A stretch of DNA of 64,000 nucleotides from Candidatus Zixiibacteriota bacterium (GTDB lineage Bacteria > Zixibacteria > MSB-5A5 > RBG-16-43-9), in contig JAUYBY010000101.1 in NCBI GenBank assembly GCA_030692925.1, positions 3,663 through 67,662 on the forward strand, read 5' to 3'. The notes below the pieces were generated by a model. The model saw only the letters and a list, made by a program, of their open reading frames with translations. It did no database searches and was not told where the DNA came from. Both the position numbers and the translations under genes were made by a program. Shown here piece by piece: positions 1,895 through 59,973 of this stretch. The first letter of the stretch is position 1. Each line of letters starts with the position of its first letter.

Positions 1895-1901
1895 CGATGC
1901 C

Positions 1902-3691: not shown

Positions 3692-3712
3692 CTTTCCCTC
3701 CTGCTTGAGAAA

Positions 3713-11598: not shown

Positions 11599-11660
11599 CG
11601 AGGCATAATATATGTTAAAATAGGATTCAAATGCAAGCAGATATTTAAAGAGGAGAGCAT

Positions 11661-11990: not shown

Positions 11991-12111
11991 TTGTAAATAT
12001 ATTGGTTGAGGCACTGGAGTATAAACCTTTAGGTTTATCTCTATGATTTTTCCTTCGACGGACCACAGGTAAAGCTGAAGCTTTACACTCCATTACATCT
12101 GTAATTTCAGC

Positions 12112-12300: not shown

Positions 12301-12319
12301 TAAAAGAAAGGAACTCAAA

Positions 12320-27780: not shown

Positions 27781-27878
<98 letters not shown>

Positions 27879-43350: not shown

Positions 43351-45000
43351 TCATTCACTCCAGTAATCTTCAAAGTACTCGTAAAGCAAGTCTTGATCTG
43401 GGAAACCAATAATATTATCCCTTACATCAATGATCTTGCATTTGTCAGTCCCCCCAATCGCTGGACCTCGTATTCCTCGCCCAATCATTTGACTGTACAG
43501 AACCAAAGAAGCAGTTGGACGAGAAATAAAAACCACATCCGTTTGAGGTGCATCAAATCCTGTAGACAAAACACCATAATTGCATAAAACTCTAATATTC
43601 CCAGAACGAAAATCATCAATGATCTTCTTTCGCATATGAACAGGGGTGTCTCCATCTATGTGAGCTGCATAATAACCAAGATATAATAATACAGAACAAA
43701 TAAATTTCGAATGGTCAACGCTGCAGGCGAAAAACAATATTCTAGAACTGCTCTTTAGCTCTATGTCAATTCTTTTTATGATTTCAAGATTTCGAAGGTC
43801 ATCTTTGCCTAGATTAATCAGAAATCCAGAAGGAAGATCATATAGCGTTTCCAAGTTCTTACGCTCTTTTGCAGTTAACTCATATGTTCTATTAGTAAGC
43901 AAAGGCTCAAGGCTAATCTTAGCCAATATCTGCTTCTCGCGCAACCATTCAATGACTGATTTGGCTTCAGGTGGAGTTATTGATATGATTCTTTTAAAAA
44001 AGAAAGAAGCTAGTTCCTCATTTTCCTCTAATTCAGATGAACTTCTTCCAGGAGTTGCTGTTAGTCCAATAACCTGAGTATCTGATCCCATTAATGCTTT
44101 GGTTACTTCCTTATAAGTCGGGGCAATTACTTTATGTGCTTCGTCCACAACAATCAACTTAACCCGCTCCTTAATTTCATTGAATGGAACCCTATTACGT
44201 CTTAATAGAGAATAGAGCCCCTGGAAACTAGCCACTATAAAGCTTGTATGGTTTGATTCATAGGGTAGGGTGCTATTTCTTCCCCAGCACCTATATAGGT
44301 AAATAGGACGATCTGCCACGTGCACCCAAACATCTTTAAAACACTCAAGTGATTGCTCACAAAGTTCTTGAGAATGAGCAAGCCAAAGAATGATTCCATT
44401 ATTGCCTATATTTTTTATCTGTTGCGTCACGATTTCCATAGAAGTCCTGGTCTTTCCTGACCCGGTAGGCATCTGTATTACAAATCTCGAACGTGGCTTT
44501 GTCAACTCTATCATGGAACTACTAAAGACTGAGTATTGATAGTCCATCAAGGACTTGAAGGGTTTCATAATTGGTGTAAGAAATTCGCACGTTGGGTAAT
44601 CTGCCCGTTTAACAGGCATAAAGTGATCGGGTAAGTGGGCCCATTTCAAAAAATCTCTACAAAACTCTTCCTTTTGCCAGCCGAGAAAGACTAATTGACT
44701 TATGCTCTCATCAAATGTTTTATTCTCATCATAATATCCCAGAGTTTTACAGAGATCCTGCAATTTTTCCTTTGGTAGCTGATTAAGAAGTGTGAACATG
44801 AACTTTTTATCGCTTAAAATATCTGACGGAGCAAAGGCATTAAAGAGCTTGATAAGGTTTTCTTTTCTGAATAGTTCTGTTGGGTCATGATCCTCACCCA
44901 ACAAAATGGGTACTAAGGTTTCAAACCTATCAAAGCTCTGTTCGCCAATTATGCCCTCCAATTGTCGTTTATTTAAGAACTGCCAAATCATGAGGCTCAA
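43351..45000 (-). CDS. SF2 helicase, type III restriction Res-subunit-like (DEAH)
   Basis: 549 aa; motif I QMPTGSGKT, II VVDEAH, III GLTATPGR, VI QMIGRGIRG; ~170-aa N-terminal unassigned domain. Confidence 0.85.
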   Translation of the reverse strand: MSLMIWQFLNKRQLEGIIGEQSFDRFETLVPILLGEDHDPTELFRKENLIKLFNAFAPSDILSDKKFMFTLLNQLPKEKLQDLCKTLGYYDENKTFDESISQLVFLGWQKEEFCRDFLKWAHLPDHFMPVKRADYPTCEFLTPIMKPFKSLMDYQYSVFSSSMIELTKPRSRFVIQMPTGSGKTRTSMEIVTQQIKNIGNNGIILWLAHSQELCEQSLECFKDVWVHVADRPIYLYRCWGRNSTLPYESNHTSFIVASFQGLYSLLRRNRVPFNEIKERVKLIVVDEAHKVIAPTYKEVTKALMGSDTQVIGLTATPGRSSSELEENEELASFFFKRIISITPPEAKSVIEWLREKQILAKISLEPLLTNRTYELTAKERKNLETLYDLPSGFLINLGKDDLRNLEIIKRIDIELKSSSRILFFACSVDHSKFICSVLLYLGYYAAHIDGDTPVHMRKKIIDDFRSGNIRVLCNYGVLSTGFDAPQTDVVFISRPTASLVLYSQMIGRGIRGPAIGGTDKCKIIDVRDNIIGFPDQDLLYEYFEDYWSE

Positions 45001-45639
45001 TCAACCTTCATCTAAGTAGTTTTGCAGAATAGTACCCCAATTAAATAATAAGGTGTCTAGGTAGTTATCGGGTGGCATATCAGAAGAGTTGTCAAATAAT
45101 CTCTGCGACCTTGAAAAAGCAAGAAGCAATGAGTTCATTATTTCCAGTAATTCTCTTGATATTCGTTCCCCATTTGACACACTTCTATCATTAAGCAACT
45201 GAACCCTTAGATTATTCAGCCTATTATAAAATGCGTGGCCAGTATTTAGGATAATTTTATCGCGCCCTCCTTGCCCCTCCGTCAAGAAAAACAGAGGACT
45301 TCTTAACTCTGACTCTTCGTAGATGTAATCCCGTGGGTCATTCCTAGCCTTAACAATAGCACTTTTTTGGATGCTCACATCTTTTGAAACTCCTTTTGAG
45401 GTTTCGCATCGCTTATCGAGCCATTCTCTTATCACTTCTTCGTGCTGTGTAAGAATATTCTGGACTACTGCGAAAGTCTTTTCAGCTAAAGAAATCCCCT
45501 TTCTAGTGGCTATCAGCTTCTTACTTTTAGTATCATAAAAATGCTTACGTATATCTAAGGTACGTATACCCTTAAATTCGGATAATTGGAAGACAAGGGT
45601 AGATTTCTTGGTGCCTACGGCTGCTAGAATCTTGTTCAT
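45001..45639 (-). CDS. hypothetical protein sharing a C-terminal motif with the GHKL ATPase
   Basis: 212 aa; C-terminus DNYLDTLLFNWGTILQNYLD parallels GHKL protein C-terminus DRFIETLRLNWGFYLNSYLD; start overlaps GHKL stop (ATGA). Confidence 0.5.
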   Translation of the reverse strand: MNKILAAVGTKKSTLVFQLSEFKGIRTLDIRKHFYDTKSKKLIATRKGISLAEKTFAVVQNILTQHEEVIREWLDKRCETSKGVSKDVSIQKSAIVKARNDPRDYIYEESELRSPLFFLTEGQGGRDKIILNTGHAFYNRLNNLRVQLLNDRSVSNGERISRELLEIMNSLLLAFSRSQRLFDNSSDMPPDNYLDTLLFNWGTILQNYLDEG

Positions 45640-47333
45640 TTCCTCTCACCCTCCTCATGAAGCCAGGTATCCAAATAGCTATTTAAGTAAAAACCCCAGT
45701 TCAGCCTAAGGGTTTCAATGAATCTATCAGCAGTCCAAGTTTGACCGCTTTCGAATTTTGCCTCTGCCTTTGAGTAAGATATTAATAATAAATCGATAAG
45801 ACTCTTTAGCTTCCTGGACTCTACCGTGCTTTCACCTGAGATTTCTAACCTGCCAACTATCTTGTAAAGGGTTTCCATGAACAGATGCCTGCAGTTATAC
45901 ATGATAACATCAGACCCCCCTAAGTGATTCGTCTCAAAAAACTCCGGCCCTTTCCAATCTTCATCAATAATTGTAAAAGGTTGGCTAGAAAACTTGATGG
46001 CCCAAGCGGCCTTCTTTTGCTCTGATTCATCCTTTTTGACTTCATCAACAAGTTTCTTCGCCTCTTCGTCTCGAACCTTGTCTTTATCAATTGCACTTTT
46101 ATCAGTTTTGGTTAAAGCGGCAGTATTTTCTGCTTCCTCATGGCCGGTTAATAGGCCTTCTCCACTTTCTTCCCTTTGTTTTTTTCTCGCATCGATATCT
46201 GCTTCTGCCCAGACATCCCTAACTTTCTCTACAGCCGTTTTTCTAGTTGGGGTAATCTGTTCATATATCGCTTGTTTTAGCTCGGGCGCAGGAACGGCAC
46301 CTCGTTTTATATTTTTCACCGTAAATGCTCGATCTAAACAAGCTTTAAATGAAATTTCGCAACCCCACCATCTGTCGATTTCGGTGAATTTTTCTCCAGG
46401 CCAATAGGGGATATGTCCAAAAAACACTTCGCGATCATTCCTGAGAATTGTAATTCCTTCATTTCTGTCAATATATCTTATCCTAGCTATGTGTGATCCT
46501 CCAGAACCTTTTTGAGGTCGAAAACTCTCATCTATTAGACTCATACGAATTTCGATTGTGGATTCATCTGGTGCACCAGGAGGTTTATCAATATTAGGAA
46601 CCGGCCAATTCATCTTTATGGGTTGATATTCATATGCAGGGGGGTCGTCAGGGAACGCAGTGTTCTTTGTTGTCACGTATAGAGGATCGATAGCTTTTAC
46701 CTCCTCACCATTCACCTCAATCTTGAATCCCTTCCAAATAAACTTGCGATAAGCACGACCAAACCATATTTTCATTTCTTGAAGTATCTCATCGGCATCA
46801 CAAGGTTGCCTGTCGTATTTTTCCCAAACTACGATGGTTCCTGATTTTTCACCTGTTAGCCTTTGATAATCCCTGGGCAATTCCCTTACACGAGGCTCTG
46901 GGATATGTTCCATTTTAGGGGGTTCCGAAGTAATCTCATCAAGATCAACATATGTCCATAACCAACTCTCACTATTCTTTTCTTTTGAGAATATTTCTAC
47001 CCGCCGACATTGATTGATGGCTGCCAAGGTCATACCAACTCCAAACCGTCCTATTCCTGATCTATCGTTATAACGGGTCGAATATCCAAGCTGCATACAT
47101 CTATGTAAAACATCTGCTCGCATTCCGTAACCATCGTCACCAAAGACTATTCTTTCGACAACACCATAAGAATTCTTTCTTCCTGTTATAGTGTAGAGTA
47201 ACTTGATTTTTACAACGGTAGCATCTGCTTGTATGGAATTGTCTACAACTTCTCCATATGCGCTATATGTGTCAAAATCCGAATTTCTCATTGATAATAA
47301 CGCCGTGGCTTCATTGACGAGCCTGACATCCAT
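45636..47333 (-). CDS. MORC/MutL-like GHKL ATPase
   Basis: 565 aa; Bergerat motifs I EVVDNSIQADA, II FGDDGYGM, III GRFGVGM. Confidence 0.8.
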   Translation of the reverse strand: MDVRLVNEATALLSMRNSDFDTYSAYGEVVDNSIQADATVVKIKLLYTITGRKNSYGVVERIVFGDDGYGMRADVLHRCMQLGYSTRYNDRSGIGRFGVGMTLAAINQCRRVEIFSKEKNSESWLWTYVDLDEITSEPPKMEHIPEPRVRELPRDYQRLTGEKSGTIVVWEKYDRQPCDADEILQEMKIWFGRAYRKFIWKGFKIEVNGEEVKAIDPLYVTTKNTAFPDDPPAYEYQPIKMNWPVPNIDKPPGAPDESTIEIRMSLIDESFRPQKGSGGSHIARIRYIDRNEGITILRNDREVFFGHIPYWPGEKFTEIDRWWGCEISFKACLDRAFTVKNIKRGAVPAPELKQAIYEQITPTRKTAVEKVRDVWAEADIDARKKQREESGEGLLTGHEEAENTAALTKTDKSAIDKDKVRDEEAKKLVDEVKKDESEQKKAAWAIKFSSQPFTIIDEDWKGPEFFETNHLGGSDVIMYNCRHLFMETLYKIVGRLEISGESTVESRKLKSLIDLLLISYSKAEAKFESGQTWTADRFIETLRLNWGFYLNSYLDTWLHEEGERK

Positions 47334-47360: not shown

Positions 47361-48587
47361 TTATGTTGGCAGCATACTTGATTGTTTCATTACTATATAC
47401 TTATCTAAAAAGTCCAATCCTTCCTCGAAATTATCGAAATCTGCATCTGAAATCTCGTGGAGCATTTTAAAGTATCTGGCAACTTCTTTGTCTGTAAGGG
47501 ATTTTTCGTCTACAAAGATTATAATTTTGCCTAAAGCCTTCGCAAAACCTAACTCACTCGCCAAAGCAAATCCACTTGGGTTATCTGCTTCGAGATAAGC
47601 AAAAATACAATCACAGTTTTTTATTGCCTCTAAATCCCAAAACGTGTATTCCTTTTCGCCCTGGAAACCGTGACTCCTAGGATCCAAAAAATGTATATTT
47701 GGGTATCTGTTGATAATTGCGTCTTGCCACTTAGTGTAAAATCCTCCTGCTAGGTAGATTGACAATTTCTTTTTCTGATCAATGACATTAACCCTGTTAT
47801 GTTGCATATTTTTCGATGCTGAAAGCTCTTTAACATTATTAGAACTATGAGCCTTTGACCTAAGTCTTGCTAAGGCCATTGGAAATGGCACTCTCATTGC
47901 TCTTGAATAGAATTCGTACCTTCTTGCAATGAAAAACAAGGATAAAACAGCTGGGATTAACAGGCTTAAAATATTTAGTTCAAAGTTTACAGATATTATG
48001 CTGAATCTGTGTAATAAGTATATGCCAAGTTGAATTATCACCATCATTATTAAAATTGTTGAGATACCCAAATTGAAGAGCGATATAAACATGAATCTAT
48101 GGACTATATGGATATCGTCACTAGCAATCGTCATTGCGATGCTTCTCATAGAATGAACGACTGTTTTGTTTGATGTCTCTGATCGTTGATTACCGACATC
48201 AAGCTGCATTAGATCACGAAATGCTCTGAAATCATCACTTTCGATAATGCTTCCAAGTAGTTCATCGTCTGATTTTAAATTCCAGGATTTTGGTATAAGA
48301 AACTTAAAAGCTCTTACCTTTTTTTGCAGGTTGATGAGATAATTTCCGAGGTTGATAATAACTACATTCCCAAAACTTATTACAAAATGACCCGATATAT
48401 AGCTCAATAATATCATCAGGAACCATTCAAATGAACTTGAAGGCGGAAATAATGAGAGAACACCAATTCTAACAGGCGAACCCAAGATATACGACAAAGA
48501 CAGCACTAATAACAAACCAGGAACAAGGGTTCCTATGATCTCATTAAAAAATCTTTCTAGTGTCTCGATTAGCTCACTTGACCTCAT
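47361..48587 (-). CDS. multi-TM protein with C-terminal nucleoside 2-deoxyribosyltransferase-like (NDT/Rcl-fold) domain
   Basis: 408 aa; ~5 TM helices in first 230 aa; C-terminal IYLAGGF ... CDCIFAYL ... ASELGFAKALGKIII matches NDT-family YLAGPF / ELG(Y/F)A motifs. Confidence 0.55.
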   Translation of the reverse strand: MRSSELIETLERFFNEIIGTLVPGLLLVLSLSYILGSPVRIGVLSLFPPSSSFEWFLMILLSYISGHFVISFGNVVIINLGNYLINLQKKVRAFKFLIPKSWNLKSDDELLGSIIESDDFRAFRDLMQLDVGNQRSETSNKTVVHSMRSIAMTIASDDIHIVHRFMFISLFNLGISTILIMMVIIQLGIYLLHRFSIISVNFELNILSLLIPAVLSLFFIARRYEFYSRAMRVPFPMALARLRSKAHSSNNVKELSASKNMQHNRVNVIDQKKKLSIYLAGGFYTKWQDAIINRYPNIHFLDPRSHGFQGEKEYTFWDLEAIKNCDCIFAYLEADNPSGFALASELGFAKALGKIIIFVDEKSLTDKEVARYFKMLHEISDADFDNFEEGLDFLDKYIVMKQSSMLPT

Positions 48588-48594
48588 AAGATAT

Positions 48595-49395
48595 CTACAA
48601 GTAACATATTAGACAGGGAGGATCTGAACCTTCATCTTCCAGCATTTTTTCCAGAGCTTCAGCAAGAGTTTTGCCTTTCGATTCTGATGACTTTCTGACA
48701 AGCGTTTTCTCAAAATCTTCGAGTATTTGCTCTCTTCTCTGAATCAGCTCACTCAGTGATTCCCCTTGATTCCAATAGAAAGTACGACCATCACCGTGTG
48801 ATGTCTCATATCTCATGGCCTCTTTAAAAAGATCCGGATGCTCCTCAGCTAACCTAATCCATTCGTACTTTCTCTGAAAAAAACAGAAATAGCATCCCGA
48901 CCGAGATCTCCAACGATAATAGCTAGGCATACCTATACCGCTATCTCCAAGCAGACGAAAGATGTCTTTCTTAACAAGACCTGCCTCTTTAAATGGGTAG
49001 ACTGGCTTGATATTCGGTTTAGTGGATATGTAGCCAGTTCGATCTTCGTCTGCTCTAATTCCTATATAACTGAAAATCGTATCATCGCCAGCGTACTTCT
49101 CAAAGGGAACAATTTTCAACTGTTTTGTGCACCATCGAGCTTTAACCGAAGGCAAATACCCACCATATACCTGTAACCAGTGATCAAAGCCTCGTTCAGA
49201 GCTCAAATGCGTGATCTTTATACCTAATCTAGCTTCCAAGCGCACAAGGAATTCGTAAGTTTCGGGCAGTTCTTTGTGAGTGTCGCAAAACACGTATTCC
49301 AGCTGTGGAACTTTTTTGTGCATATAAACGGCCAAAGCCGCACTATCCTTACCACCCGAGAGAGATAGTATGTGGCGAACCTTCTCTTTAGTCAT
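48595..49395 (-). CDS. PAPS-reductase-family PP-loop ATP pyrophosphatase
   Basis: 266 aa; PP-loop SLSGGKDSAAL; ARWCTKQLK and C-terminal Cys cluster as in DndC/SspD/BrxP-type enzymes. Confidence 0.75.
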   Translation of the reverse strand: MTKEKVRHILSLSGGKDSAALAVYMHKKVPQLEYVFCDTHKELPETYEFLVRLEARLGIKITHLSSERGFDHWLQVYGGYLPSVKARWCTKQLKIVPFEKYAGDDTIFSYIGIRADEDRTGYISTKPNIKPVYPFKEAGLVKKDIFRLLGDSGIGMPSYYRWRSRSGCYFCFFQRKYEWIRLAEEHPDLFKEAMRYETSHGDGRTFYWNQGESLSELIQRREQILEDFEKTLVRKSSESKGKTLAEALEKMLEDEGSDPPCLICYL

Positions 49396-50812
49396 GAACT
49401 TTCTCGCTCTCCTCTTTTTGAGACTCTAGATCTGTATTGCTTTTATCATCCTTGCGATTATCTCTGCAAAGTACTTTTTCTATCATGGAAATGATCACGG
49501 GTTTTATAAGCTTCTCATTATATCTCAGATTTTCGTCATGGAGTATTTGCTCAGCAATTTCATTTATTTTATCCTTCTGGTCTAACTCAGTCCAGATGAC
49601 CTCTCTCATCTCCTTACCGTCGGGAAGAGTGAGAGTAACTCTTCTTACATCAAAACCGTCCAACTTTGCTCTTGAAAGCTCGTCTTGTAAGGCTTCCAGA
49701 TTAGTGAACCTTCTAACAAGCTCGCTCAGTCTTGCTTCAAAACTCAGAACATCGTCGTCAGTCCAAAACCTAGGGGGCTTATCGGCCACAACCATAAGAA
49801 GTGCTTCTAACCATTTGGTATCATCTATTTCCTCATTCGCAGCAGCTAGGACAAAGCTCTTCAAACAAGGATCGAGGACGCGGTCCTTTATATAGTGAGT
49901 TCTAACCTTAAGGTTTCCTCTCAACCTTTCTAAATCAGATCCTAAGGCAAAGGCGCTATGAAGCAATTCCCTGCAGTGCATAAGAAGGTCCGAATAAGCA
50001 CTCTGGATTTCTTGCAGAACTTTGTACAATTTTTGCCTGAAATCTCTTGCTACTTGACTATCATAAGTCACATCAGCATTTGATAATACTACTCCACATG
50101 CTTGCGGCAAGGCGACAAAAAGCAGATTATCCGGCTCCGTTTCGGTGAGAAGAGCACGTCTGACAGATATTGCCTCCTGGCTCAAGCGATTTGTGCTCAG
50201 AGTGTAGGGGGGCAACTTTCTTACTATTGCTATCAAAGGTTTTACAACTCCTAATAGGGTGGCATTCCAAACCTTATCAGCTCTAGTGTAAGAGGAATTG
50301 AATAGACCTTCTTGCAGTTCCTTGAATATACTAGCATTGACTCCGGACATTTTAAGGCTCTTTACACTGAACCTCACAGGATTTCTGACTAAAAGTTCAA
50401 AATGCTCTACTCCAAGCACAGGTATGAATGCGCCGTCAAGATAAAGGGTCAAATCTTCGCTGTGAGATAGAAGAACTGCTGCCAATAATACAGGAATGCA
50501 TCCTTGCTTAACGCCGTACGGTGGAGCCTCAAGTATTTGTATTAACATGTTTATTGACTTCGGCGCGTCAGTTGCCGATAGACAAAAATCTTCAATAGCC
50601 TTCCACACCTCGTAAACATCACTCTTTTCATTGGGATTTACAAAGTACCACTTATCCTTGTTCCTCCTGTAGATACCGGTTTGAGCAAATAGACTTTCAA
50701 AGATGCTACACTCAGATCCATTTCCTACTAATCCCAGTCGTTCCTTTCCTTCGTTGGTGATCATTGCTTCTATCAACTTTCGTCTAGCCTGCATCCCCTG
50801 CGATGTTAGCAA
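49388..50812 (-). CDS. hypothetical protein (474 aa) in PP-loop operon
   Basis: overlaps PP-loop gene start by 8 bp; no recognisable motif. Confidence 0.5.
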   Translation of the reverse strand: MLTSQGMQARRKLIEAMITNEGKERLGLVGNGSECSIFESLFAQTGIYRRNKDKWYFVNPNEKSDVYEVWKAIEDFCLSATDAPKSINMLIQILEAPPYGVKQGCIPVLLAAVLLSHSEDLTLYLDGAFIPVLGVEHFELLVRNPVRFSVKSLKMSGVNASIFKELQEGLFNSSYTRADKVWNATLLGVVKPLIAIVRKLPPYTLSTNRLSQEAISVRRALLTETEPDNLLFVALPQACGVVLSNADVTYDSQVARDFRQKLYKVLQEIQSAYSDLLMHCRELLHSAFALGSDLERLRGNLKVRTHYIKDRVLDPCLKSFVLAAANEEIDDTKWLEALLMVVADKPPRFWTDDDVLSFEARLSELVRRFTNLEALQDELSRAKLDGFDVRRVTLTLPDGKEMREVIWTELDQKDKINEIAEQILHDENLRYNEKLIKPVIISMIEKVLCRDNRKDDKSNTDLESQKEESEKVHD

Positions 50813-50902
50813 TCTTCGATTTATGAGTTCGTTCCAGAGTCGAAGGCCCTTATGATAGACATGGTCACTGATATCGGATAGTAGTCTATTAAAGTATCTA
50901 TT

Positions 50903-52906
50903 TTAATCAAGTTTCTTCTGTCTACCTTTTATCCAATAAGTGAAATTAGTTAGTGAATCATCGAAAGAATGTGACAGAGCCTGGTCCAATAGTCGCATGG
51001 CACTAATCAGACGTTGCTTAACCTCATTTCTGGCGACTCCGTCGGTTCTCAATTGAGGTGCGTTCTCCTGGATTCTTTTTAATGCCACATATTCATTAGA
51101 TGCTAGTCTCAGAGCTTCAAGGTCTCTAGCACAGATAACAATAAGTGGTCTAAAATCTTGGGTCTGTGCTGGCACCTCCCGCAATTCCGCTTTATCACCT
51201 ACCCAATAACAAATCAATCCGTCGCTCTCGAACTCCTGGCATTTGCTATTCTTTATGTTAGCAACTCTATCGAAGTATTGTCTCTCGAAATAGCGAACCG
51301 TGCCCGTCAGATAACTGTGACGCCTTGCAACTACAGGAGCTAGAGGATAATGCTGATTCAACAAATCCGATAGAGAAGGAGTCATGGTAACAGTCTGTTC
51401 GGCGATTTCTCTCTCTATATCAAAATCAGACCCTTGCCATATCCTTAGCTCATCGAGTTGCCTTCGAAGTGTCACAAAACCTTTGTCCACAAGGACGTCC
51501 ACGACTTTTTTCCAATGGGACAGTTCTTTTGCATTTCTAGGATCATCACACAGGGCAAAAGCAACTAGCTGAAGAGAAGCCCTAAGTGGTCCTGAAGTCG
51601 AGATAAGGTTCAGTATACCAATTGTTTTTAAGGCTACAAAAACATCAGGATCAAGGTGTTTAGCATCCAAGATACTTTCCTGAATTTCAACCCAACGCTG
51701 ATAATTAGGTCGCCTAGATATTGTCATTCCTGCCGATTCAATGAAGTAATCATATATGCGGTCTAACTTCAGGGTTGGGAGCTTAGTATTGTCAAACGAA
51801 TACTCGTTTAAGAAACTCGCAAAAGAGTGGGGCTCCTGGCTAGCCAAAAATGTGAACAGTGTTCGATCGTTCTGGGCATAGCGGCTGCATAGAATCGGCA
51901 ACGCTAGAGCGGCCACCGGGTGAAATGGATAAATAGAAGCAATGTTGTCAGAAGAAATGCCATGAAAGATGTTGCTTTCTTTAAAAACGGTCAACCATAT
52001 CCGAGACCATTTTCTTATGGACGAGCAGAGATTATTTGTGGTCGTATTTGTGATTGCTTGTCCTATTACCTTTATTGTTTGTCCAGGGGACTCGATCCAT
52101 GGAATATCTTCAAAGCGACCTTGAATTTTAGCCCATTCGTTTCTCTGCGCCGCACTGAGACCGTGGGCATAGTCCGCAAAGGATTGATGAAGGAGTCCAA
52201 ACAGGAAAACCCTTGATTCGCCGCTCGTGGAAAAAGACTCGGCTATTTGTTGGAGAACATAAAGATCCTCAACCGATTGACTGAGAGCTGCGGATTCTAG
52301 GCTTTTGCCGAGCTCATCTATGATCAGCAATATTCCGTTGTTAGCGCTATCGGCTACCTTTTGTATAATATCGATTAATTTCTGATCAGTGATTTTCTCT
52401 CCGTAACCTATTTTCTTTCTTAATTTGTCAAGCTCAAATAGGACCCCGGGTTTTTTCCCTCTCTTTTTCTGCCAAAAAAGTTGTGTTCCGCGCAGAAGCG
52501 CTTTTATAATAGTAGTTCTGATCGATTCGCGCTGCGCCGTTGCAACCGCTCTAATAAGTCCCTCTTTGGGGATTTTATCTGTCCAAGAATCACAGAGCTC
52601 AGAGTCTGCCTCCCGAAGAATCTGCAGCGCATTTGTGTGAATTCTCTCTGTAGTGGGAGAACACAGAGCGGTTAGAAAATGCGCAAAAGCTGATTTCCCA
52701 GTTCCGTAGACTCCAGTTAATGTCCAGGCACTGACCGCACGCGGTGAAGAAAAAGATTCAAGGAATCTTCGAGTCGTTTCAAGGGCTCTAGCAGTTGGAA
52801 TATATCCCACGATACTATCAGGGACTTCTAAGTCGCGCTCGAGATTTACGGAGCGTACATACCTACGTCGAATCGTAATATATCTTGAAAGCTGTTGCAT
52901 CCTCAC
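50903..52906 (-). CDS. large P-loop NTPase
   Basis: 667 aa; Walker A GVYGTGKS, Walker B LLIIDELGK; family not assignable by eye. Confidence 0.7.
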   Translation of the reverse strand: MRMQQLSRYITIRRRYVRSVNLERDLEVPDSIVGYIPTARALETTRRFLESFSSPRAVSAWTLTGVYGTGKSAFAHFLTALCSPTTERIHTNALQILREADSELCDSWTDKIPKEGLIRAVATAQRESIRTTIIKALLRGTQLFWQKKRGKKPGVLFELDKLRKKIGYGEKITDQKLIDIIQKVADSANNGILLIIDELGKSLESAALSQSVEDLYVLQQIAESFSTSGESRVFLFGLLHQSFADYAHGLSAAQRNEWAKIQGRFEDIPWIESPGQTIKVIGQAITNTTTNNLCSSIRKWSRIWLTVFKESNIFHGISSDNIASIYPFHPVAALALPILCSRYAQNDRTLFTFLASQEPHSFASFLNEYSFDNTKLPTLKLDRIYDYFIESAGMTISRRPNYQRWVEIQESILDAKHLDPDVFVALKTIGILNLISTSGPLRASLQLVAFALCDDPRNAKELSHWKKVVDVLVDKGFVTLRRQLDELRIWQGSDFDIEREIAEQTVTMTPSLSDLLNQHYPLAPVVARRHSYLTGTVRYFERQYFDRVANIKNSKCQEFESDGLICYWVGDKAELREVPAQTQDFRPLIVICARDLEALRLASNEYVALKRIQENAPQLRTDGVARNEVKQRLISAMRLLDQALSHSFDDSLTNFTYWIKGRQKKLD

Positions 52907-53913
52907 TTTCTTTTCCTGTAATATTTTGTCAAAACTTGTTCAACTAATAGGCTAGGAGGCCTCTTAAAAGAAAACTGGATTAAACCTGCTGTCTCCGATA
53001 GAGAAATATCTGGAAAGTCTGTAGAGACCTTGTCTATGGCTTCACGGAGAGAAGGATCAGATAGTTTGAAAACGTGCCCCGGGCTTCCAATATCATACAG
53101 AAGGCGAGAAATGGAAATTGTTTTCGCACTGCTTTCAATCCGCGAGATGAAATCGAGACAACAGACAACAATAATCTCTGCAGGTAGTTCGTATTTGCTT
53201 CCCATATTGAAAGAATAATGCTTAGTATCGCCATAGTCCTGTAGGAGTCCCAAATCGGCAAAAGGACAGTCCAGCGAATCCTCACTTGGTCCTCTTAAAT
53301 TGTTATGTCTAACATACATCCGCAGAATACAATTGACATCTTTTCTAAGGGACGAGTCAGCAACTTTGCTTGATGGAAACAGTCGCTCCTTAAACTCTTT
53401 CAGGGCTGAAAACAGATCTTCAGCAGTGAATATCAGTTGATTGAATTCATTGAAAGTAAAGTACCAGGCAGTTGCTCTGCATGGAGGTTTTAGTAAACTC
53501 CACTGAAGCAGCCATAGTGATCCGGGATCTTCAAGATATGGGTCCCAACCCTTATCCCCAAGAAGCTTAACGCCAAATTCGGAAGGTACCATTTGGTGGC
53601 TTCTACCCAAAGCATCCTCCGCCTCGTCAAGCACTTTGAACGCAAAACACCAGTACCTAATGGCCTTGGCCATGTTCTTCCCGACGCCTAAAATGATATG
53701 AGCATCTTCTCTTGCGAAAATTGTGTGTTCTGTGGATGCCTTATCAAATCCCTTCTTTAGCCAACCATAACGTGGATGGAAGGTTTCATGTCTACAGAAC
53801 ATAGGAACGTTTGTCGACGAATACAGCGACGGCATATGAGCAAGAATGTCTAGTGTGGCTTTTCCTCTCAGGAAAGCACTTGTATTTGCTTTAGGCATAT
53901 TGAATCCTAACAT
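52903..53913 (-). CDS. hypothetical protein (336 aa), first gene of PP-loop operon
   Basis: 4-bp overlap with P-loop ATPase; conserved-looking N-terminal FHPRYGWLKKG. Confidence 0.5.
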   Translation of the reverse strand: MLGFNMPKANTSAFLRGKATLDILAHMPSLYSSTNVPMFCRHETFHPRYGWLKKGFDKASTEHTIFAREDAHIILGVGKNMAKAIRYWCFAFKVLDEAEDALGRSHQMVPSEFGVKLLGDKGWDPYLEDPGSLWLLQWSLLKPPCRATAWYFTFNEFNQLIFTAEDLFSALKEFKERLFPSSKVADSSLRKDVNCILRMYVRHNNLRGPSEDSLDCPFADLGLLQDYGDTKHYSFNMGSKYELPAEIIVVCCLDFISRIESSAKTISISRLLYDIGSPGHVFKLSDPSLREAIDKVSTDFPDISLSETAGLIQFSFKRPPSLLVEQVLTKYYRKRK

Positions 53914-54354
53914 TCATGCGAACTCTATTCATAGCTAATATATTCCCTGTTGAGTTAAGGTACTGTTTATCAGATTAGGTCCTATATCTTTCTAGTTTGA
54001 TCCTCTGATTCTCCCTGCTTCTATAGTCGATTATCGCGCTTGTTCTTATAACCCTAAACAGGCTACTGGAACTGGAAAAAGGCATTTCAAGAAAACTTGA
54101 TAAAATGATACTATAACAAGCTTAAACTGTCAAGATATTTCCTTCCCTTATGAACTGACTCCAGATTCGCTCATAAGATGAGTTAGATTCTAACCGTTCA
54201 AAGTATGAGTTCGTTTCTTTAATATCTTCAGCACTTAAAGGTTGAAGAAAAATTCAATTTGATTAGAATATGAGTTCTATCTCCAAAAAGTGAGCAAATT
54301 TGACATATTTTTCATCTTCTGCTAAGCTGATAAAACACAAACAGGAGGTGAAAA

Positions 54355-54489
54355 ATGACTCTTTCAAAGGCTCAAAAACTCATTATAAAGCTGTATCATG
54401 AGCTAAAAGCTGGGAAAACCGTGACCCACGATGAGGTCAATGGGCTGGGTAACTTTCTTGATAAGAATAGGTTCTGTTATTGCGCTTAA
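54355..54489 (+). CDS. 44-aa micro-ORF with strong RBS (tentative)
   Basis: AGGAGGTGAAAAATG; MTLSKAQKLIIKLYHELKAG... Confidence 0.25.
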   Translation: MTLSKAQKLIIKLYHELKAGKTVTHDEVNGLGNFLDKNRFCYCA

Positions 54490-54689
54490 TGTCCATAAGG
54501 TGCAATTGAGGAGCAGACTGTAACTGTCTCATAATCAAAGACTTGTCCAATTTCCCATACACCTAAGCCTTGGTTATTGCACCTTTATGTCAAAACTCGC
54601 GCGTTTTTCTTGAATTATTCCTAGAGGTCTACTCATTTTCTGATCGAGTACCTTTTCTCTGATATGTTCTACCGCCTAATGTCACACAT

Positions 54690-54747
54690 TGACAATTGCT
54701 TTGGCAGAACTAACTCAATAAGTGGCATAATAACTGGGGGCAGGACA
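54690..54747. repeat. ~58-bp direct repeat, left flank of CBASS cassette
   Basis: ttgacaattgct...aataactgggggcaggaca; second copy at 60424-60482 (about 80 percent identical), third partial at about 60926. Confidence 0.7.
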
Positions 54748-54971
54748 ATCCAGGATTTGAGAAGAATAGGTGGAGAGTGGAAAAAGCTGGTATCTTAAGA
54801 AAGTTCAAACAAGTTGATGTTTTAGACATATTCAAAGATTTCAAAGCCAGCTCATAAGATGGACTGGCTTTTTTTATCTCACCCTATTTAAATACCCCCT
54901 ACTTTTCATTCCCGAGACTGATTGTGGCCCACTGGATTTTTCTGGTACCAAATGCATTTACCTCGTTTTAT

Positions 54972-55496
54972 TTATGTTTGATCATACAAAAGCTCTATTC
55001 TTCCCCATCTACAAGAATAGAGGAATACGCCTAACTCGGGCACTGCAAAAAGGTTTCCTCCAATAATTACCAATATACTTTCAGGACAGTTGGTTTCACT
55101 ATCAGCCGATATAGCTGATTGAGTCATATTGTCCATATGACTCGGAATAGGAGTGCCATTCGGATGACTATGCCACTCGCCAACGTAATATCTTCTCCCC
55201 CCATATCTTTGCTGTAATTTGTTATAAAATGCCCTAAGACCTTTGATTCCTCTAAAAAATGAATTGTCATAGCACCTTGAGTCAGAACACAGAGGACTCG
55301 CATCGAGAACAAATGCATCAAATCCATCATCAGAATAACATCCCACTAACGACGTTCCAACTTCGTGTGGATGATGCTTTTTCCCCATCTTAAGCATCTT
55401 GTTAAAGCAAAAATGTGAAATTGAAACAGTATATCGGCCACATTTGGATTTCCACTTCAGTGGAAGCTCATTATTCATGGATATTGATTGGTCCAT
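54972..55496 (-). CDS. cap3: JAB/MPN (JAMM) metallopeptidase, CBASS Cap3-like
   Basis: 174 aa; JAMM motif EWHSHPNGTPIPSHMD (HxHx7Sx2D). Confidence 0.8.
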   Translation of the reverse strand: MDQSISMNNELPLKWKSKCGRYTVSISHFCFNKMLKMGKKHHPHEVGTSLVGCYSDDGFDAFVLDASPLCSDSRCYDNSFFRGIKGLRAFYNKLQQRYGGRRYYVGEWHSHPNGTPIPSHMDNMTQSAISADSETNCPESILVIIGGNLFAVPELGVFLYSCRWGRIELLYDQT

Positions 55497-57310
55497 ACTA
55501 TTTCAACAAACGGAGAAGATTGGACTACTTTGCTATTAAGCGAATTTCTCTTGATTATCACTACAAGCCCTTTTCCATCACCTTGTTCGATATGGTGATT
55601 GATAATATCCATAGCAGTTGCCGTCAATACATAAATATGGGCGTTCAGCGCAGGAAAAGTTGGATGCCAACAACCTGCCCCTTCAATGATTTGCTCTTCC
55701 CTCGATGGTTGATATAGATATTCTTGTGACGTAATCGGTAACTGTTCTTTTTTAACGCATGACATCAAATCTTGAAAAATTTCATCACACGAGGTTTCCC
55801 TTCCAGAAATTAGTAGAGTAATAAGCTCCGCATGAAAATTGAAGAACAAAGATATGATCTGTTTTCTTTCGACTGTTGCATATTTGTTCAACCAGTCGAA
55901 GGCCGATTCACTTGCAGTACTATTAATGATTATATCTGTCCGTGAAAGAGATTTGTAGGCATCATTTTGTGATGAAGGACTTAGGGGTATTCCGATCGGA
56001 TAACCAATAATAGTTGATAATGGATTGGTCCTTGAAAGTTTCCATGCGAGTGACTTTGCTTTGTTAAATCCTAGAAATGTTCCATCGAGTGTATGGCGAC
56101 AAAAATTGCCAATTTGAATGTTTTTAGGATCGAACAAGTAAAGGACCCTAACACCACCGCGAGTCAATAGTTCAGCGATAAGACTACCTAAAGCACCGCA
56201 ACCAAAGATAGCCACCCGCGCTGATCGAATCGACCGTGAATAGGAACCTCTGGCATATATTCTATCATCTGCGACATTAGATGATTTACCCCAAGGTAGC
56301 TGCTGAGCGAATTTGAAACGATCATGCTCTTGTAATCTCTTCCAAATCCTGTTTAGCTTAATGGATTTACACTTTACTGACTTCCGTTCAACTCTTAAAT
56401 TGGGAAATACAAGTGGTTGCCAATGCATTTCAATAGGTTTCTCGCCGTAGATTTTTGGGATTGGAAACCCGATTAATATCAGTCCGATTTCCGGGTCACG
56501 ATTCTCGACCTTCCATGCTTCTTTAAGAATATCATAAAAGTCCAAGTCATTGGCCGAACATAGTTGGGTAATCTCTCTATATGTTTGGGGCGGACGATGA
56601 CGCTTGAAACGAATATCAGGCAAAATCAGCCAGTTTCCAATCAGTTTCTTATCTTGGTCGAGAATCCCAGAGGAGAATTCTGATTCCCATACAATTGAGC
56701 TGTTATCGCTGAATCGAACTGCAAATATTGCTGGAATACAATTACCTACAAAGCATTCCACTATTCCAGATTTCCCAATATATGGTTTCCATTTTTCATA
56801 TGATTTTTCAGTTTCATTAAAGAGTATGGGAAAATCGGTCGGAAAGCTTTCGCCTAACAACTTTCGGCTGAAATCAGGCAATTCGTATGGATCACCTGGT
56901 TTAAGAAGGTTAGCATTGGCAGCGTCTGTGAGCCAGTTTTTTGCCCAATTAACATAGTGTACGAGTCGTTCAGCATTCCGGGGCGCCAAACGTTCCGCAG
57001 GAAGACATAACTTTCCTGTTTCTGAATCTTGATGCGGAAACCCTTTAACCTCCTCACAGTTTGAGAAAATGTCAACAGGTAAGAATGGGAAACCTTCTAG
57101 AATGCATACCTGCACATCTACCGCAGCCGGGATATTCTCTGGGTTGGGGTAAGGAACTGATACAACGCAGTCAAATATCCATCCTTTCCTACCGCTTGTG
57201 TGGTTCCAATAGAGTGGCTTCGTTACATCGACGATGCGGTATTGTAGTAGAAGATCATAAGCTTCCAAAACAACTTCAGGTATTTTTGCATCATTAAGCA
57301 TCGTATCCAT
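55475..57310 (-). CDS. cap2: E2-E1 fusion (ThiF/MoeB-like adenylation domain), CBASS Cap2-like
   Basis: 611 aa; C-terminal Rossmann RVAIFGCGALGS...LFDPKNIQIGNFCRH (ThiF/E1 pattern); ~340-aa N-terminal region consistent with E2-like domain. Confidence 0.75.
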   Translation of the reverse strand: MDTMLNDAKIPEVVLEAYDLLLQYRIVDVTKPLYWNHTSGRKGWIFDCVVSVPYPNPENIPAAVDVQVCILEGFPFLPVDIFSNCEEVKGFPHQDSETGKLCLPAERLAPRNAERLVHYVNWAKNWLTDAANANLLKPGDPYELPDFSRKLLGESFPTDFPILFNETEKSYEKWKPYIGKSGIVECFVGNCIPAIFAVRFSDNSSIVWESEFSSGILDQDKKLIGNWLILPDIRFKRHRPPQTYREITQLCSANDLDFYDILKEAWKVENRDPEIGLILIGFPIPKIYGEKPIEMHWQPLVFPNLRVERKSVKCKSIKLNRIWKRLQEHDRFKFAQQLPWGKSSNVADDRIYARGSYSRSIRSARVAIFGCGALGSLIAELLTRGGVRVLYLFDPKNIQIGNFCRHTLDGTFLGFNKAKSLAWKLSRTNPLSTIIGYPIGIPLSPSSQNDAYKSLSRTDIIINSTASESAFDWLNKYATVERKQIISLFFNFHAELITLLISGRETSCDEIFQDLMSCVKKEQLPITSQEYLYQPSREEQIIEGAGCWHPTFPALNAHIYVLTATAMDIINHHIEQGDGKGLVVIIKRNSLNSKVVQSSPFVEIVWTNQYP

Positions 57311-58454
57311 ATTGGCGAGGAGTTAGATCACCAGTTTGGGATTTAATTGCGGGAGTGATGAACGGTCCTTTCGGTTCCCCTCCGTCATCACCGCCGTCGT
57401 CATCTACAGGCGGTGGAAATTTGTCACTAAAGAGTTCACGCCATTTGTTCGCCGAGACTTTGACTGTATCAACACTCAACGCCTCTCTTGCTATTTGAGC
57501 CGCAGAGAATACATGGCCATAGAACTTAGCAAAGTCTTCTCCAGAAATCCTAGCAAAAACATTGTGCTGAGGAACTCCATGATCAGGGAAATTCGGAGTT
57601 CTTCTTGCCTCAGCGGCATAAGCGTACTTTTTAACAATTGACTCCAATGTCAATGTAACTCCTTCTGCTACTGACTGAATAGAGTCGGGACAACACACAC
57701 CAATAAGATGCTCAAGTGGGTAGCCCTTAGGACTATCAGTCTCATGATTTATCCTCTCCCACCATTTTATCGCCTTCACAACATTGACGTAGTGTCCATT
57801 ACAACGCGCATTTTTGCCAAAAGTCCACTTTATTTGCTCAAGTGGATGAGTAGGTTTCCACTCTCCAGCCTCCCTATCTGGAATCCATAAAGGCTCAATT
57901 TTCCACTCCGATTCTTTTCTAGCAGCTTCCATCAATGCATCAGCATAAATAGATTTTCGTTGAGATACAGGAACCCAGGATTTCACAAGACGCCAGTCTT
58001 GTGCTTCTTCAGGTGTTTCAAATGTCGTCACAGCCTCGCTCTTCAGGATCCCCTCTTCAGATTGTGAGAGTGAAGCTGTGATAACTAGATCTAAATCAAT
58101 ATAAGAAAGTTCAATACCGAATGATCGTCCCTGCCGTTTATGCTTTTCTTCGTAGTATTTCCTCAAGAAGGGTACAAAAAGGTCCATTGCCTTATTCGGA
58201 TCTTGATACTCATTTTTGTCCAATCGACTAACCACAATAACATCTACATCCGAGCGTTCATCTCCCTTTGGTCGAATTGCAGTAGCACGCCTATAACTGC
58301 CTTGCAGGAGTGTACTCACGATGATAGGTTTTAATTCTTCATCACTGGCTAAACGATCCCGAAGTGTTATGTGACCTTTAATACAGTCTTCTCTTTGGCT
58401 GTCTGTTGGACGTATCTCTCTTAAGAATTTTTCGAAATAACTTGACAGTATCAT
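57294..58454 (-). CDS. cdn: cGAS/DncV-like nucleotidyltransferase (CD-NTase)
   Basis: 386 aa; GS-x9-13-[DE]h[DE]h pol-beta NTase motif QGSYRRATAIRP...SDVDVIVV. Confidence 0.75.
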   Translation of the reverse strand: MILSSYFEKFLREIRPTDSQREDCIKGHITLRDRLASDEELKPIIVSTLLQGSYRRATAIRPKGDERSDVDVIVVSRLDKNEYQDPNKAMDLFVPFLRKYYEEKHKRQGRSFGIELSYIDLDLVITASLSQSEEGILKSEAVTTFETPEEAQDWRLVKSWVPVSQRKSIYADALMEAARKESEWKIEPLWIPDREAGEWKPTHPLEQIKWTFGKNARCNGHYVNVVKAIKWWERINHETDSPKGYPLEHLIGVCCPDSIQSVAEGVTLTLESIVKKYAYAAEARRTPNFPDHGVPQHNVFARISGEDFAKFYGHVFSAAQIAREALSVDTVKVSANKWRELFSDKFPPPVDDDGGDDGGEPKGPFITPAIKSQTGDLTPRQYGYDA

Positions 58455-58458
58455 GTTT

Positions 58459-59973
58459 TTATCCTCCTAGATTGATAATTGGTAATTGCATACTTGGATA
58501 ATATCTCGGCCCTCCAGATAATCCTTCAAAATCGTGCTCGTACAACTGGATGGTTTTGGTAACATAACGGAGCGTATTGCCCAAAATATATGCAAGTGCA
58601 ACAGGGCCAGAAAAAAAGAAGTGTAATTTATGGCACTTGGATGGAAGATTACTCCTAAGCAGCGTTTGTAATTCGCATCCCAATTGCCACGCATGCGTAC
58701 CGTCAAATATTGCCTTTGGCCCTATACCATTAACTGGAGAAAGATCAATTCGCAACAACCTTTCTAGTCCCGTTGATTTAAGGAAAGGAAGTAGGTGATT
58801 TTTTATAGGATTTGTTACAGAGATAGAGACAACTACTTCCGTATTGACCCCCCCGTAAATATTTATATTCCACAAACCACTATTACCAGTGCTTGGTTCA
58901 GGCCAAAATTCATAACCAGACATCGTCGTTTTTTGAGCAGGTATAATCTGAAGCCCAAATTTCGGATTTAATAGATTTCCGGCCAGAAAGGCGATACTCA
59001 AATGACAATCAAAGAATATGTAGACCGGCTGAGGAAGATTCTTTACATTATCGCTCCGAAAAAAAGCATCCACGAGCTTAGGGATCTCCTCTCGCCAATA
59101 GGACTTAGAATGGGGGAAACGTCCATCAAAGAGTTCAGATAAATCAAGGTGCGCTGCTTGAAACTCACGGGGTCTACGGGCACCCTGAGGACAACTTCTA
59201 ATGGAGATTTCACTGTAATTTGGCCGCGGGGGAACGATAAGCTTTTCCTCCTTGAGCATATCATTGAAAGAATCACGATCAAAACGATTTCGACCTTGGG
59301 AGAATAACTCCCACGCTAGATCATCATAAATTATGGTCGTTGCCAGAGGATCTATAGGTTTAAGCCCAGCTAATTTTAAATATGGTTCCAGTTCTTTAGC
59401 CAGGTCAGTAAGATTCTTACCCAGTTGAAATCTAACAGTGTTTAGAAACCTTTTAAGTTCTGTCTCCGTTATAGATAGGTGTTCTGCAAATTTGGAACGA
59501 ATCATTCCCTCCTTAGTTCTTGAACTACCCTTGTAAAAAGTATCGCGAATTCTCTCCTCAGATAAATGACGTGCTAGCACATCGGCAGGATCCCAAATCC
59601 AATTTGAAACCACGTATAACCGAAACGTCTTTGATTCGTTTATGAGCTGAACATAAGCATTATTTAAGCGCTTTAACATTGATTCTTCACAACTAATAAA
59701 AGACGGATCAAGCAATTTCTCATATGTGAATGCTCCTCCTTGTGTCACATGGTATTTACATTGATAGTAATCGCAACTAATTCTTTTACCAGTTGCTTTG
59801 TCACAGATTGGCTCACGGTAGGTCACCACAACATCGTCGACAAAGGATACCTTGTCGCTTTCTAGACATACCGATTCCACGAAGTCTCCTGTACGCAGTT
59901 TTAGCAAATGGAGCCAAAAAATCCGTGCTTGATATTCGTGTCCTTGCCTTATTGCAGCAATAGGCCGTCCCAT
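58459..59973 (-). CDS. CBASS effector, Cap4-like (N-terminal REase-fold nuclease + C-terminal SAVED-like domain), tentative
   Basis: 504 aa; N-terminal D...D/QxK-like acidic cluster (VDDVVVTY...DYYQCKYH); C-terminal HFFFSGPVALAYILG CARF/SAVED-like motif; position upstream of CD-NTase. Confidence 0.5.
   Translation of the reverse strand: MGRPIAAIRQGHEYQARIFWLHLLKLRTGDFVESVCLESDKVSFVDDVVVTYREPICDKATGKRISCDYYQCKYHVTQGGAFTYEKLLDPSFISCEESMLKRLNNAYVQLINESKTFRLYVVSNWIWDPADVLARHLSEERIRDTFYKGSSRTKEGMIRSKFAEHLSITETELKRFLNTVRFQLGKNLTDLAKELEPYLKLAGLKPIDPLATTIIYDDLAWELFSQGRNRFDRDSFNDMLKEEKLIVPPRPNYSEISIRSCPQGARRPREFQAAHLDLSELFDGRFPHSKSYWREEIPKLVDAFFRSDNVKNLPQPVYIFFDCHLSIAFLAGNLLNPKFGLQIIPAQKTTMSGYEFWPEPSTGNSGLWNINIYGGVNTEVVVSISVTNPIKNHLLPFLKSTGLERLLRIDLSPVNGIGPKAIFDGTHAWQLGCELQTLLRSNLPSKCHKLHFFFSGPVALAYILGNTLRYVTKTIQLYEHDFEGLSGGPRYYPSMQLPIINLGG

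Follow-up and report, generated by a model that had tools for sequence, protein, structure and literature searches.

Ssp systems place phosphorothioate (PT) on one DNA strand (for example, CpsCA) and are described with different restriction partners. In the SspABCD-SspE systems of Vibrio cyclitrophicus FF75 as well as Escherichia coli 3234/A, a defence gene lies directly 3' of sspD, and in the SspBCD-SspFGH system of Vibrio anguillarum FF-93, sspBCD occurs without sspA beside a multi-gene restriction module (PMC8092258). The cysteine desulfurase SspA is often absent, with IscS substituting (the FF-93 and 3234/A systems lack sspA), SspE coexists with SspFGH, and in ~84% of 2,678 sspBCD clusters both SspE and SspFGH are missing from the vicinity, which has raised the question of other restriction partners (PMC8092258). 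Type 4 of the bacteriophage exclusion (BREX) systems (BrxP, BrxC, PglZ and BrxL) is related to Ssp in that SspC is a homolog of BrxC/PglY, and SspD and SspB correspond to the two halves of BrxP. Separately, the combination of a GHKL ATPase, a superfamily II (SF2) helicase and an HKD or other nuclease was predicted in 2008 as a restriction–modification (R-M) theme by Iyer, Abhiman and Aravind (PMC2292703). Here we describe a 64,000-nt stretch of a Candidatus Zixiibacteriota contig (the window; positions below are window positions unless a homolog locus is named) in which sspBCD is followed on the same strand by a gene for a protein with four transmembrane (TM) helices and a C-terminal nucleoside 2-deoxyribosyltransferase (NDT)-like domain, here called 4TM-NDT, and by an operon that begins with a GHKL ATPase gene. 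At a probability of roughly 70%, we read the region as an Ssp-type PT DNA-modification defence cassette with a GHKL partner operon, in which 4TM-NDT is proposed to act as a guard.

An SspBCD core with an interrupted sspC

All five minus-strand open reading frames (ORFs) of the original prediction were confirmed at their positions, but they represent four genes, one of them interrupted. Judged by profile matches, ORFs 1–4 are a canonical SspBCD PT modification module of an already described kind. The 336-aa protein, previously listed as unknown, matches PADLOC SspB (E = 6.7e-116, profile positions 2–295 of 295) and Pfam PF13182 (DUF4007; E = 1.2e-96); because its homology starts at residue 38, translation may begin at an internal Met. 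The 667-aa and 474-aa ORFs match PADLOC SspC PDLC02781 at positions 2–650 (E = 1e-237) and 684–1104 (E = 9e-145) of 1104, so that the second protein listed as unknown is the C-terminal part of SspC, and the large ATPase is of the SspC/BrxC type, as had been suspected. The SspC translation contains Walker A (GVYGTGKS) and Walker B (LLIIDELG) motifs, and its PADLOC BrxC match (E = 3.8e-86) is best taken to reflect the homology of SspC and BrxC. SspD matches its PADLOC profile at E = 8.5e-113 (374.7 bits, positions 1–276 of 277), compared with E = 3.6e-13 for PF01507 and only 2.8e-5 for DndC; together with the PP-loop SGGKDS in its translation, this bears out the earlier placement of the enzyme in the DNA-modification branch of the phosphoadenosine phosphosulfate (PAPS)-reductase family. 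The order sspB-sspC-sspD, tightly packed on one strand, recurs in the homolog loci L001, L008, L009, L100 and L105 and in many GHKL loci. Genes sspB and sspC overlap by 4 bp and the 474-aa ORF and sspD by 8 bp, with 90 nt between the 667-aa and 474-aa ORFs, all as originally noted; the gap between sspD and the 4TM-NDT gene is 7 nt rather than 8, and that between the 4TM-NDT and GHKL genes is 27 nt rather than 28.

These matches bear directly on what had been proposed instead, namely a new nucleic-acid modification system outside Dnd, Ssp and BREX with unknown 336-aa and 474-aa parts. That proposal drew on the scarcity of motifs obvious by eye and on the lack of PglZ, Lon-like and cysteine desulfurase genes. 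It is refuted by full-length SspB, SspC and SspD matches (E = 1e-113 to 1e-237) in canonical order and by the presence of the same SspBCD module in dozens of fetched loci, which leave it almost no probability; four of the five ORFs match one described system in its gene order, and the claim that the proteins fit no named system falls. Still less can be said for the PP-loop enzyme as a CysH-type sulfate-assimilation reductase. It shares PF01507 with that type, but its scores lie far below the curated cut-offs (TIGR00434, 17.7 bits against 165.1; PRK02090, 24.4 against 154) and far below its SspD score, and its gene has sspC on one side and a defence gene on the other.

Other named systems were also rejected for the window genes. 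Dnd membership is contradicted by the weak DndC score and by the lack of any PADLOC match to DndD or DndE, and BREX type 4 by the absence of PglZ and BrxL from the cassette, in which Pfam and PADLOC searches detected no Lon-like gene either. No match to SspE, DUF262 or DUF1524 was found by Pfam and PADLOC in the nine cassette proteins, nor to the PADLOC models of SspF, SspG and SspH among the window proteins; the last three models do work, having matched L001 at E = 7e-209, 6e-188 and 0. When two SspA proteins served as tblastn queries, no cysteine desulfurase gene (sspA) was detected in the 64-kb window, so sulfur would have to come from a housekeeping enzyme of this kind. Since sspA is often absent and IscS substitutes, this is no argument against Ssp. 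Compared with SspABCD-SspE, the window thus has the same sspBCD order and families and likewise a further gene directly after sspD, but it lacks sspA, its sspC is interrupted, and the gene after sspD encodes 4TM-NDT and not SspE. It resembles SspBCD-SspFGH in combining sspBCD without sspA with a multi-gene module, but has GHKL, PC4-like, SF2 helicase and phospholipase D (PLD) genes in place of SspF (with a Walker A motif), SspG and SspH (FtsK-like, ~1750 aa).

The two parts of sspC share a reading frame and are parted by a single TAA (...GRQKKLD*NRYFNRLL...). In a read-through translation, homology to intact SspC proteins (1161–1167 aa) continues unbroken across the stop, a position at which T, Q or S is found in homologs, and identity to the intact SspC of L008 and L009 is 40% over 1164 aligned residues. 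The 30 seemingly intergenic codons before the supposed TTG start are homologous too, including a conserved LWNELINR motif. Recoding is unlikely because, of the 32 ORFs in the window with 250 aa or more, 15 end in TAA, which is their most frequent genuine stop, and a natural split of sspC was rejected on the shared frame, the homology across the stop and the ordinary use of TAA as a stop here. The simplest reading of the alignment is that the TAA is a nonsense mutation, or else an assembly error or minority (population) variant of this metagenome-assembled genome (MAG); a CAA to TAA change is possible, L008 having Q at sspC codon 668.

If the mutation is real, the cassette could be a decaying, non-functional remnant that has lost PT and whose neighbouring genes are heading for loss. 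This tentative alternative carries some weight: the single in-frame TAA is a normal stop here, the next possible start lies 30 codons on and past the conserved motif, defence islands turn over fast, and three integrase genes are nearby. Against it, this is one lesion in ~11.5 kb, the eight genes otherwise retain full-length homology and conserved motifs, and a minority allele or consensus error is possible in metagenome-assembled sequence. Decay would in any case concern this copy only and not the nature of the system.

A GHKL operon as frequent partner of sspBCD

The operon downstream of 4TM-NDT encodes a GHKL ATPase (PF13589, E = 1.5e-20; MzaB similarity weak), a PC4-like protein (PF02229, E = 1.5e-7), a helicase (PF04851, E = 1.1e-23; PF00271, E = 2.9e-15) and a candidate nuclease of the PLD family (PF13091, E = 4.3e-7; PF00614, E = 8.6e-4; DrmC and ZacB matches weak). 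None of the four proteins belongs to a named PADLOC system. Residues 84–210 of the PC4-like protein are homologous to residues 432–555 of the GHKL protein (BLASTP, E = 9e-16), a shared C-terminal stretch that may be a docking module. The helicase matches PbeA partially, over the SF2 core only (E = 1.6e-18), and scores 42.7 bits against a cut-off of 600 for TIGR04095 (dnd_restrict_1); with these sub-threshold scores and no other Pbe match, PbeABCD was rejected. A close precedent is the MORC/paraMORC type of predicted R-M module, which the window matches with GHKL, helicase and PLD proteins on consecutive genes beside a modification module. The window differs in pairing these genes with PT (SspBCD) instead of a methylase, and in the additional PC4-like subunit with the GHKL C-terminal module.

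At least 1257 GHKL homologs were found at E < 1e-20. A scan of genome contigs queried with the single GHKL protein yielded 5 loci, and a scan of metagenomes queried with an alignment yielded 80. Each of the four genome loci that could be used (Marinoscillum, two loci; Poribacteria and Nitrosopumilus, one each) carries the GHKL module next to sspBCD. In the metagenomes, sspD was found in 38 of the 80 GHKL loci, and 40 of the 42 others were too short in flank; when the count was confined to loci whose flanks reach 1.2 kb or more upstream and 9 kb or more downstream, 11 of 13 had sspD. sspD lies co-directionally upstream in 24 loci, often 19–87 nt away, and is convergent in 12. This co-occurrence supports the earlier view of the two operons as possibly one modification-plus-restriction unit, and we infer, partly by analogy, that the GHKL operon is the cognate restriction module of SspBCD. 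SspBCD, supplied by a housekeeping cysteine desulfurase, would place PT on one strand of the DNA, and the GHKL clamp with its single-stranded DNA (ssDNA)-binding PC4-like subunit would recruit or license a helicase-driven PLD nuclease by the PT status of the DNA. The complex could thereby read PT and cut or nick foreign DNA, either in the mode of SspFGH (unmodified target) or in that of SspE (PT-activated).

Individual GHKL loci vary around this arrangement. In L016, on the chromosome of a Nitrosopumilus sp. MAG (OZ245003.1, 483251–504936), sspB-sspC is followed by a 3-kb insert, sspD and GHKL-helicase-PLD; as this chromosome is archaeal, the pairing of Ssp and GHKL crosses the boundary between bacteria and archaea. 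The PC4 query matches inside the GHKL ORF in L013, echoing the common C-terminal module of ~125 residues. Where 4TM-NDT sits in the window, between sspD and the GHKL gene, some loci have unannotated ORFs, namely L018 (189 and 671 aa, locus positions 2576–5161), L021 (215, 615 and 547 aa, 1384–5549) and L045/L046 (92–93 aa, about 454–775); others have the PLD gene itself (L035, L040, L050 and L065), and L069 has sspA. L043 and L048 differ from L069 in having sspA beside sspB.

A four-helix membrane protein family associated with phosphorothioation genes

The 408-aa 4TM-NDT protein is identical to the NCBI MAG protein 'hypothetical protein Q8O10_10360'. It has no PADLOC or NCBIfam match, and its family is unnamed in the libraries searched. 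Its TM helices lie at residues ~17–35, 55–77, 167–189 and 200–220, with a helical insert at 90–160, and the membrane domain has the conserved motifs ERFFxDxIGxxxPG, WRSIAMT, YRFMFISL and ERRYxFYSRAMRVPF. Neither a solved structural relative of this domain nor a relative in viral contigs was found. The C-terminal domain, predicted to be cytoplasmic, belongs to the NDT/DNPH1 superfamily by Pfam and by fold, the Pfam score lying just at the gathering threshold, and the earlier description of the protein as a fusion of TM helices and an NDT-like domain is thus confirmed. Four residues (D318, N336, P337 and E345) are invariant and Y278 nearly so, and the catalytic Glu (E345) and the conserved Asp (D318) are present in 15 of 15 sequences; in an alignment, E345 falls on the Glu in IEIGWA, a motif of the cytidine monophosphate (CMP) N-glycosidase of PDB entry 4jen. 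The domain is of Rossmann type, potentially catalytic, and akin to TIR and NDT folds. Among NDT-family N-glycosidases (DNPH1/Rcl, MilB, 4jen, nucleoside 2-deoxyribosyltransferases and YtoQ), the domain stands apart in being fused to or beside a four-TM domain in PT defence loci, and its activity is predicted only; the literature on YtoQ gave no functional lead.

A word-indexed search returned only 17 close relatives of the 408-aa protein, whereas a profile of its TM domain, run against 1.84 billion representative proteins, found at least 550 clusters at E ≤ 1e-3, including 124 at E ≤ 1e-30. Members listed fall into two length classes: all 66 of the 66 long proteins carry the NDT domain, and 87 are TM-only. 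No fused domain other than NDT was seen among the listed members. A separate NDT gene (136–158 aa) begins 0–13 nt after a TM-only gene in L098/99 and L101, so the TM and NDT domains form a conserved pair, and the 4TM family occurs in three forms, that is, fused to NDT, beside a separate NDT gene, and alone.

Of 13 contexts whose flanks were usable, 12 have the 4TM family next to or within PT-modification genes, often 5–20 nt away or overlapping, and this holds whichever restriction partner is present, be it the GHKL module, SspFGH or BREX type 4. In L009 all eight genes occur in the order of the window and sspC is intact, and in L008 SspBCD and 4TM-NDT are followed by the helicase, GHKL and PLD genes in rearranged order. 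SspFGH follows SspBCD and 4TM-NDT in L001–3 (PADLOC-confirmed), and in several homolog loci (L001 and L105) 4TM-NDT lies exactly between sspD and sspFGH. SspFGH-like genes are convergent to SspD and 4TM-NDT in L010–12, and a plasmid of Candidatus Tenderia electrophaga (CP013100.1) carries SspA, then SspBCD-4TM-NDT (the 4TM-NDT gene being Tel_16940) and convergent SspHGF. The order is PglZ, BrxL, cysteine desulfurase (SspA) and 4TM-NDT in the BREX type 4-like L007; SspBCDA then TM in L100; SspBCD, an SspA remnant, TM and NDT in L101; SspA, TM, an SspH-like gene, SspC and DUF4007 in L103/4; and SspB, SspC, 4TM-NDT and SspD in L106, where sspC and the 4TM-NDT gene overlap by 4 nt, with overlapping stop and start codons. 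None of the 4TM-NDT loci examined has an annotated DUF262/SspE gene.

Between the window and L008, identity is 40–58% for the Ssp proteins and 50% for 4TM-NDT, compared with 26% for GHKL and 37% for the helicase. These values indicate that 4TM-NDT co-diverges with the Ssp genes and not with the more divergent, rearranged restriction genes. Neither the loci with the closest SspD proteins (L031 and L035; 62% identity) nor any of the other 84 GHKL-type loci carries the gene, which makes it a dispensable, patchy, yet co-inherited accessory of the PT module.

DndB-like (PF14072) genes occur beside Ssp and TM/NDT genes in L101 (locus positions 11334–12545) and L106 (9321–10559); DndB is known as a regulator of Dnd, not Ssp, systems. 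The sspA region of L101 gives a strong tblastn match within which only small ORFs are called, and it may be a pseudogene. In L004–L006 (JGI Ga0163150_10001472 and relatives), 4TM-NDT adjoins a RepA-like gene and is convergent to a three-gene module encoding proteins of 1759 aa (DUF87/HerA-type), 279 aa and 1425 aa, the last with only a weak SspC P-loop match.

Possible roles of 4TM-NDT

By analogy with other defence loci, we tentatively favour, at somewhat less than an even chance, a role for 4TM-NDT as a dispensable second-layer effector or 'guard' of the PT machinery. It is favoured because the protein joins a membrane domain to a potentially catalytic Rossmann-type domain and is dispensable, because its gene usually occupies the sspE slot 3' of sspD, because it coexists with differing restriction modules as SspE does with SspFGH, and because nesting of such a gene in a modification operon is possible, as for PrrC. 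The anticodon nuclease PrrC, nested in a type I R-M locus (PrrC/EcoprrI), is likewise an accessory, dispensable and potentially toxic gene inherited with that locus; it has no sequence or fold relationship to 4TM-NDT, and the guard logic is carried over by analogy only. The protein would be membrane-anchored, and its NDT domain would face the cytoplasm. When infection disturbs the Ssp machinery, the NDT domain would N-glycosidically cleave or bind a (deoxy)nucleotide, or the membrane would be perturbed, and this response would stop phage replication.

The same gene neighbourhoods allow 4TM-NDT to be a component or regulator of PT modification instead of an effector, which we consider possible but rather unlikely. 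It could be a membrane anchor of SspBCD, a nucleotide-sensing regulator of PT density (compare DndB), or a house-cleaning N-glycosidase that clears nucleotides derived from PT or arising as by-products, as DNPH1 does with 5-hydroxymethyl-deoxyuridine monophosphate (hmdUMP). The position of the gene inside the sspBCD operon of L106 and directly after the cysteine desulfurase gene in L007 and L100 speaks for this, as do its tracking and co-divergence with the modification genes whatever the restriction module, the invariant catalytic Glu and Asp of NDT-family N-glycosidases, and the DndB-like genes in two loci of the family. Yet the closest SspBCD relatives and most sampled Ssp loci do without the gene, the characterised SspBCD of E. 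coli and Vibrio make PT without 4TM-NDT (PMC8092258), a soluble hydrolase would need no four TM helices, and TM-only forms lack the enzyme domain altogether.

An independent single-gene defence, or an effector of the neighbouring type II cyclic-oligonucleotide-based antiphage signalling system (CBASS), sitting by chance between systems, is improbable. Defence genes do cluster, TM and Rossmann-type effectors are common in nucleotide-signalling systems, and the CBASS genes lie ~1 kb upstream of sspB and ~6.4 kb from 4TM-NDT, but the CBASS has a SAVED-endonuclease effector of its own, homolog loci contain no CBASS genes, and PT genes immediately adjoin the family in nearly all flanked contexts. 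Marginally less probable again is a scheme in which PT itself is the source of alarm: phage degradation of PT-marked host DNA would let nuclease-resistant PT dinucleotides or thiophosphate nucleotides accumulate, and their binding or cleavage by the NDT-like domain would set off the four-TM part as an abortive-infection effector that acts on the membrane. A more modest version does without a PT ligand, and in it the 4TM(±NDT) family would be an unrecognised fifth component guarding Ssp and BREX-4 PT machineries, and GHKL-PC4-helicase-PLD would be the missing restriction partner of many 'orphan' sspBCD clusters.

Several points weigh against the reading of the region as a PT cassette with a GHKL partner and a guard. 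The roles of 4TM-NDT and the GHKL module are drawn from gene neighbourhood and domain analogy, and the operon-internal position in L106 and the positions after sspA in L007 and L100 fit a part in modification or regulation equally well. L004–6, of which a 21-kb locus was fetched, is the sole 4TM-NDT context without an Ssp gene, and two well-flanked GHKL loci, including L059, also lack Ssp. TM-only forms exist, so NDT activity is not essential to the family, and the orientation of the two domains is uncertain in the full-length model (predicted TM-score (pTM) 0.56). If the stop in sspC is real, this copy of the cassette may make no PT; with a module attacking unmodified DNA it would then be self-toxic, in which case the stop would be an artefact or the system would work differently.

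Whereas the SspBCD core is an ordinary phosphorothioation module, the 4TM(±NDT) family as a recurrent accessory of Ssp/BREX-4 PT modules and the GHKL/PC4/helicase/PLD module as a frequent Ssp partner appear to be new. No description of either as an Ssp partner was found in the open-access literature, which is no proof, and a reappraisal of Dnd (PMC10853773) and a survey of BREX (PMC12839542) mention neither. Both are testable candidate partners for sspBCD clusters that have no SspE or SspFGH nearby. As an effector or guard, 4TM-NDT would add a membrane- and nucleotide-directed layer to PT immunity, which has so far been DNA-acting only; in a modification role, it would be a new accessory factor of PT biosynthesis or regulation.

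Cassette layout and the surrounding island

The features of the cassette are listed in Table 1. The ~1-kb gap between the Cap3-like gene and sspB (53914–54971) holds the best promoter-like match of the region, and contains no ORF of at least 45 aa in the ORF list and no RNA family in an Rfam search. A terminator-like hairpin after the PLD gene is a possible end of the transcription unit, and the two sites, both consensus matches only, are compatible with a single transcription unit.

Table 1 Positions of genes, domains and candidate signals of the cassette in the 64,000-nt window
Feature	Positions	Strand	Evidence
sspB, 336 aa (DUF4007; DNA-binding/nickase subunit of Ssp)	52903-53913	-	PADLOC, Pfam
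sspC, one frame of 1172 codons (BrxC/PglY-like P-loop ATPase)	49388-52906	-	PADLOC
sspC N-terminal ORF, 667 aa	50903-52906	-	
sspC C-terminal ORF, 474 aa	49388-50812	-	
In-frame TAA, sspC codon 668	50903-50905	-	
sspD, 266 aa (PAPS-reductase-family PP-loop ATP pyrophosphatase, SGGKDS)	48595-49395	-	PADLOC, PF01507
4TM-NDT gene, 408 aa	47361-48587	-	
4TM-NDT membrane domain, residues 1-262	47802-48587	-	
4TM-NDT C-terminal NDT/DNPH1-like Rossmann-type domain, residues 273-408	47364-47771	-	
MORC/paraMORC-type GHKL ATPase, 565 aa, first gene of candidate restriction module	45636-47333	-	PF13589
PC4-like ssDNA-binding protein, 212 aa	45001-45639	-	PF02229
SF2 helicase, 549 aa (ResIII and Helicase_C)	43351-45000	-	PF04851, PF00271
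PLD/HKD-family nuclease candidate, 305 aa	42414-43331	-	PF13091, PF00614
Best sigma-70-like promoter match, upstream of sspB	54105-54133	-	TTGACA-17-TATCAT, 11/12 positions, consensus match only
Terminator-like hairpin 3' of PLD gene	42305-42317	-	Consensus match only

The cassette lies within a defence island, probably mobile, flanked by tRNA and integrase genes. A tRNA gene (27781–27867, plus strand) is directly followed by a tyrosine integrase gene (27959–29074, plus strand), and further integrase genes are found at 35611–36450 (plus strand) and 41242–41805 (plus strand; short, 187 aa). The guanine-cytosine (GC) content falls to 0.37–0.40 over ~32–50 kb, and the GC skew changes sign at 34–42 kb. 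The Ssp and CBASS genes are probably part of a tRNA-integrated mobile island.

Directly upstream of the cassette, a complete type II CBASS (54972–59973, minus strand) encodes a SAVED-endonuclease effector (504 aa), a CD-NTase (386 aa), a Cap2-like E1-E2 protein (611 aa) and a Cap3-like JAB protein (174 aa). The island also encodes a RuvB-like AAA+ protein with weak IetA matches (39217–40383, plus strand) and a 505-aa protein with a weak match to the archaeo-eukaryotic primase (AEP) family AEP-TOTE (29991–31508, minus strand), and both of these may be further conflict-system genes.

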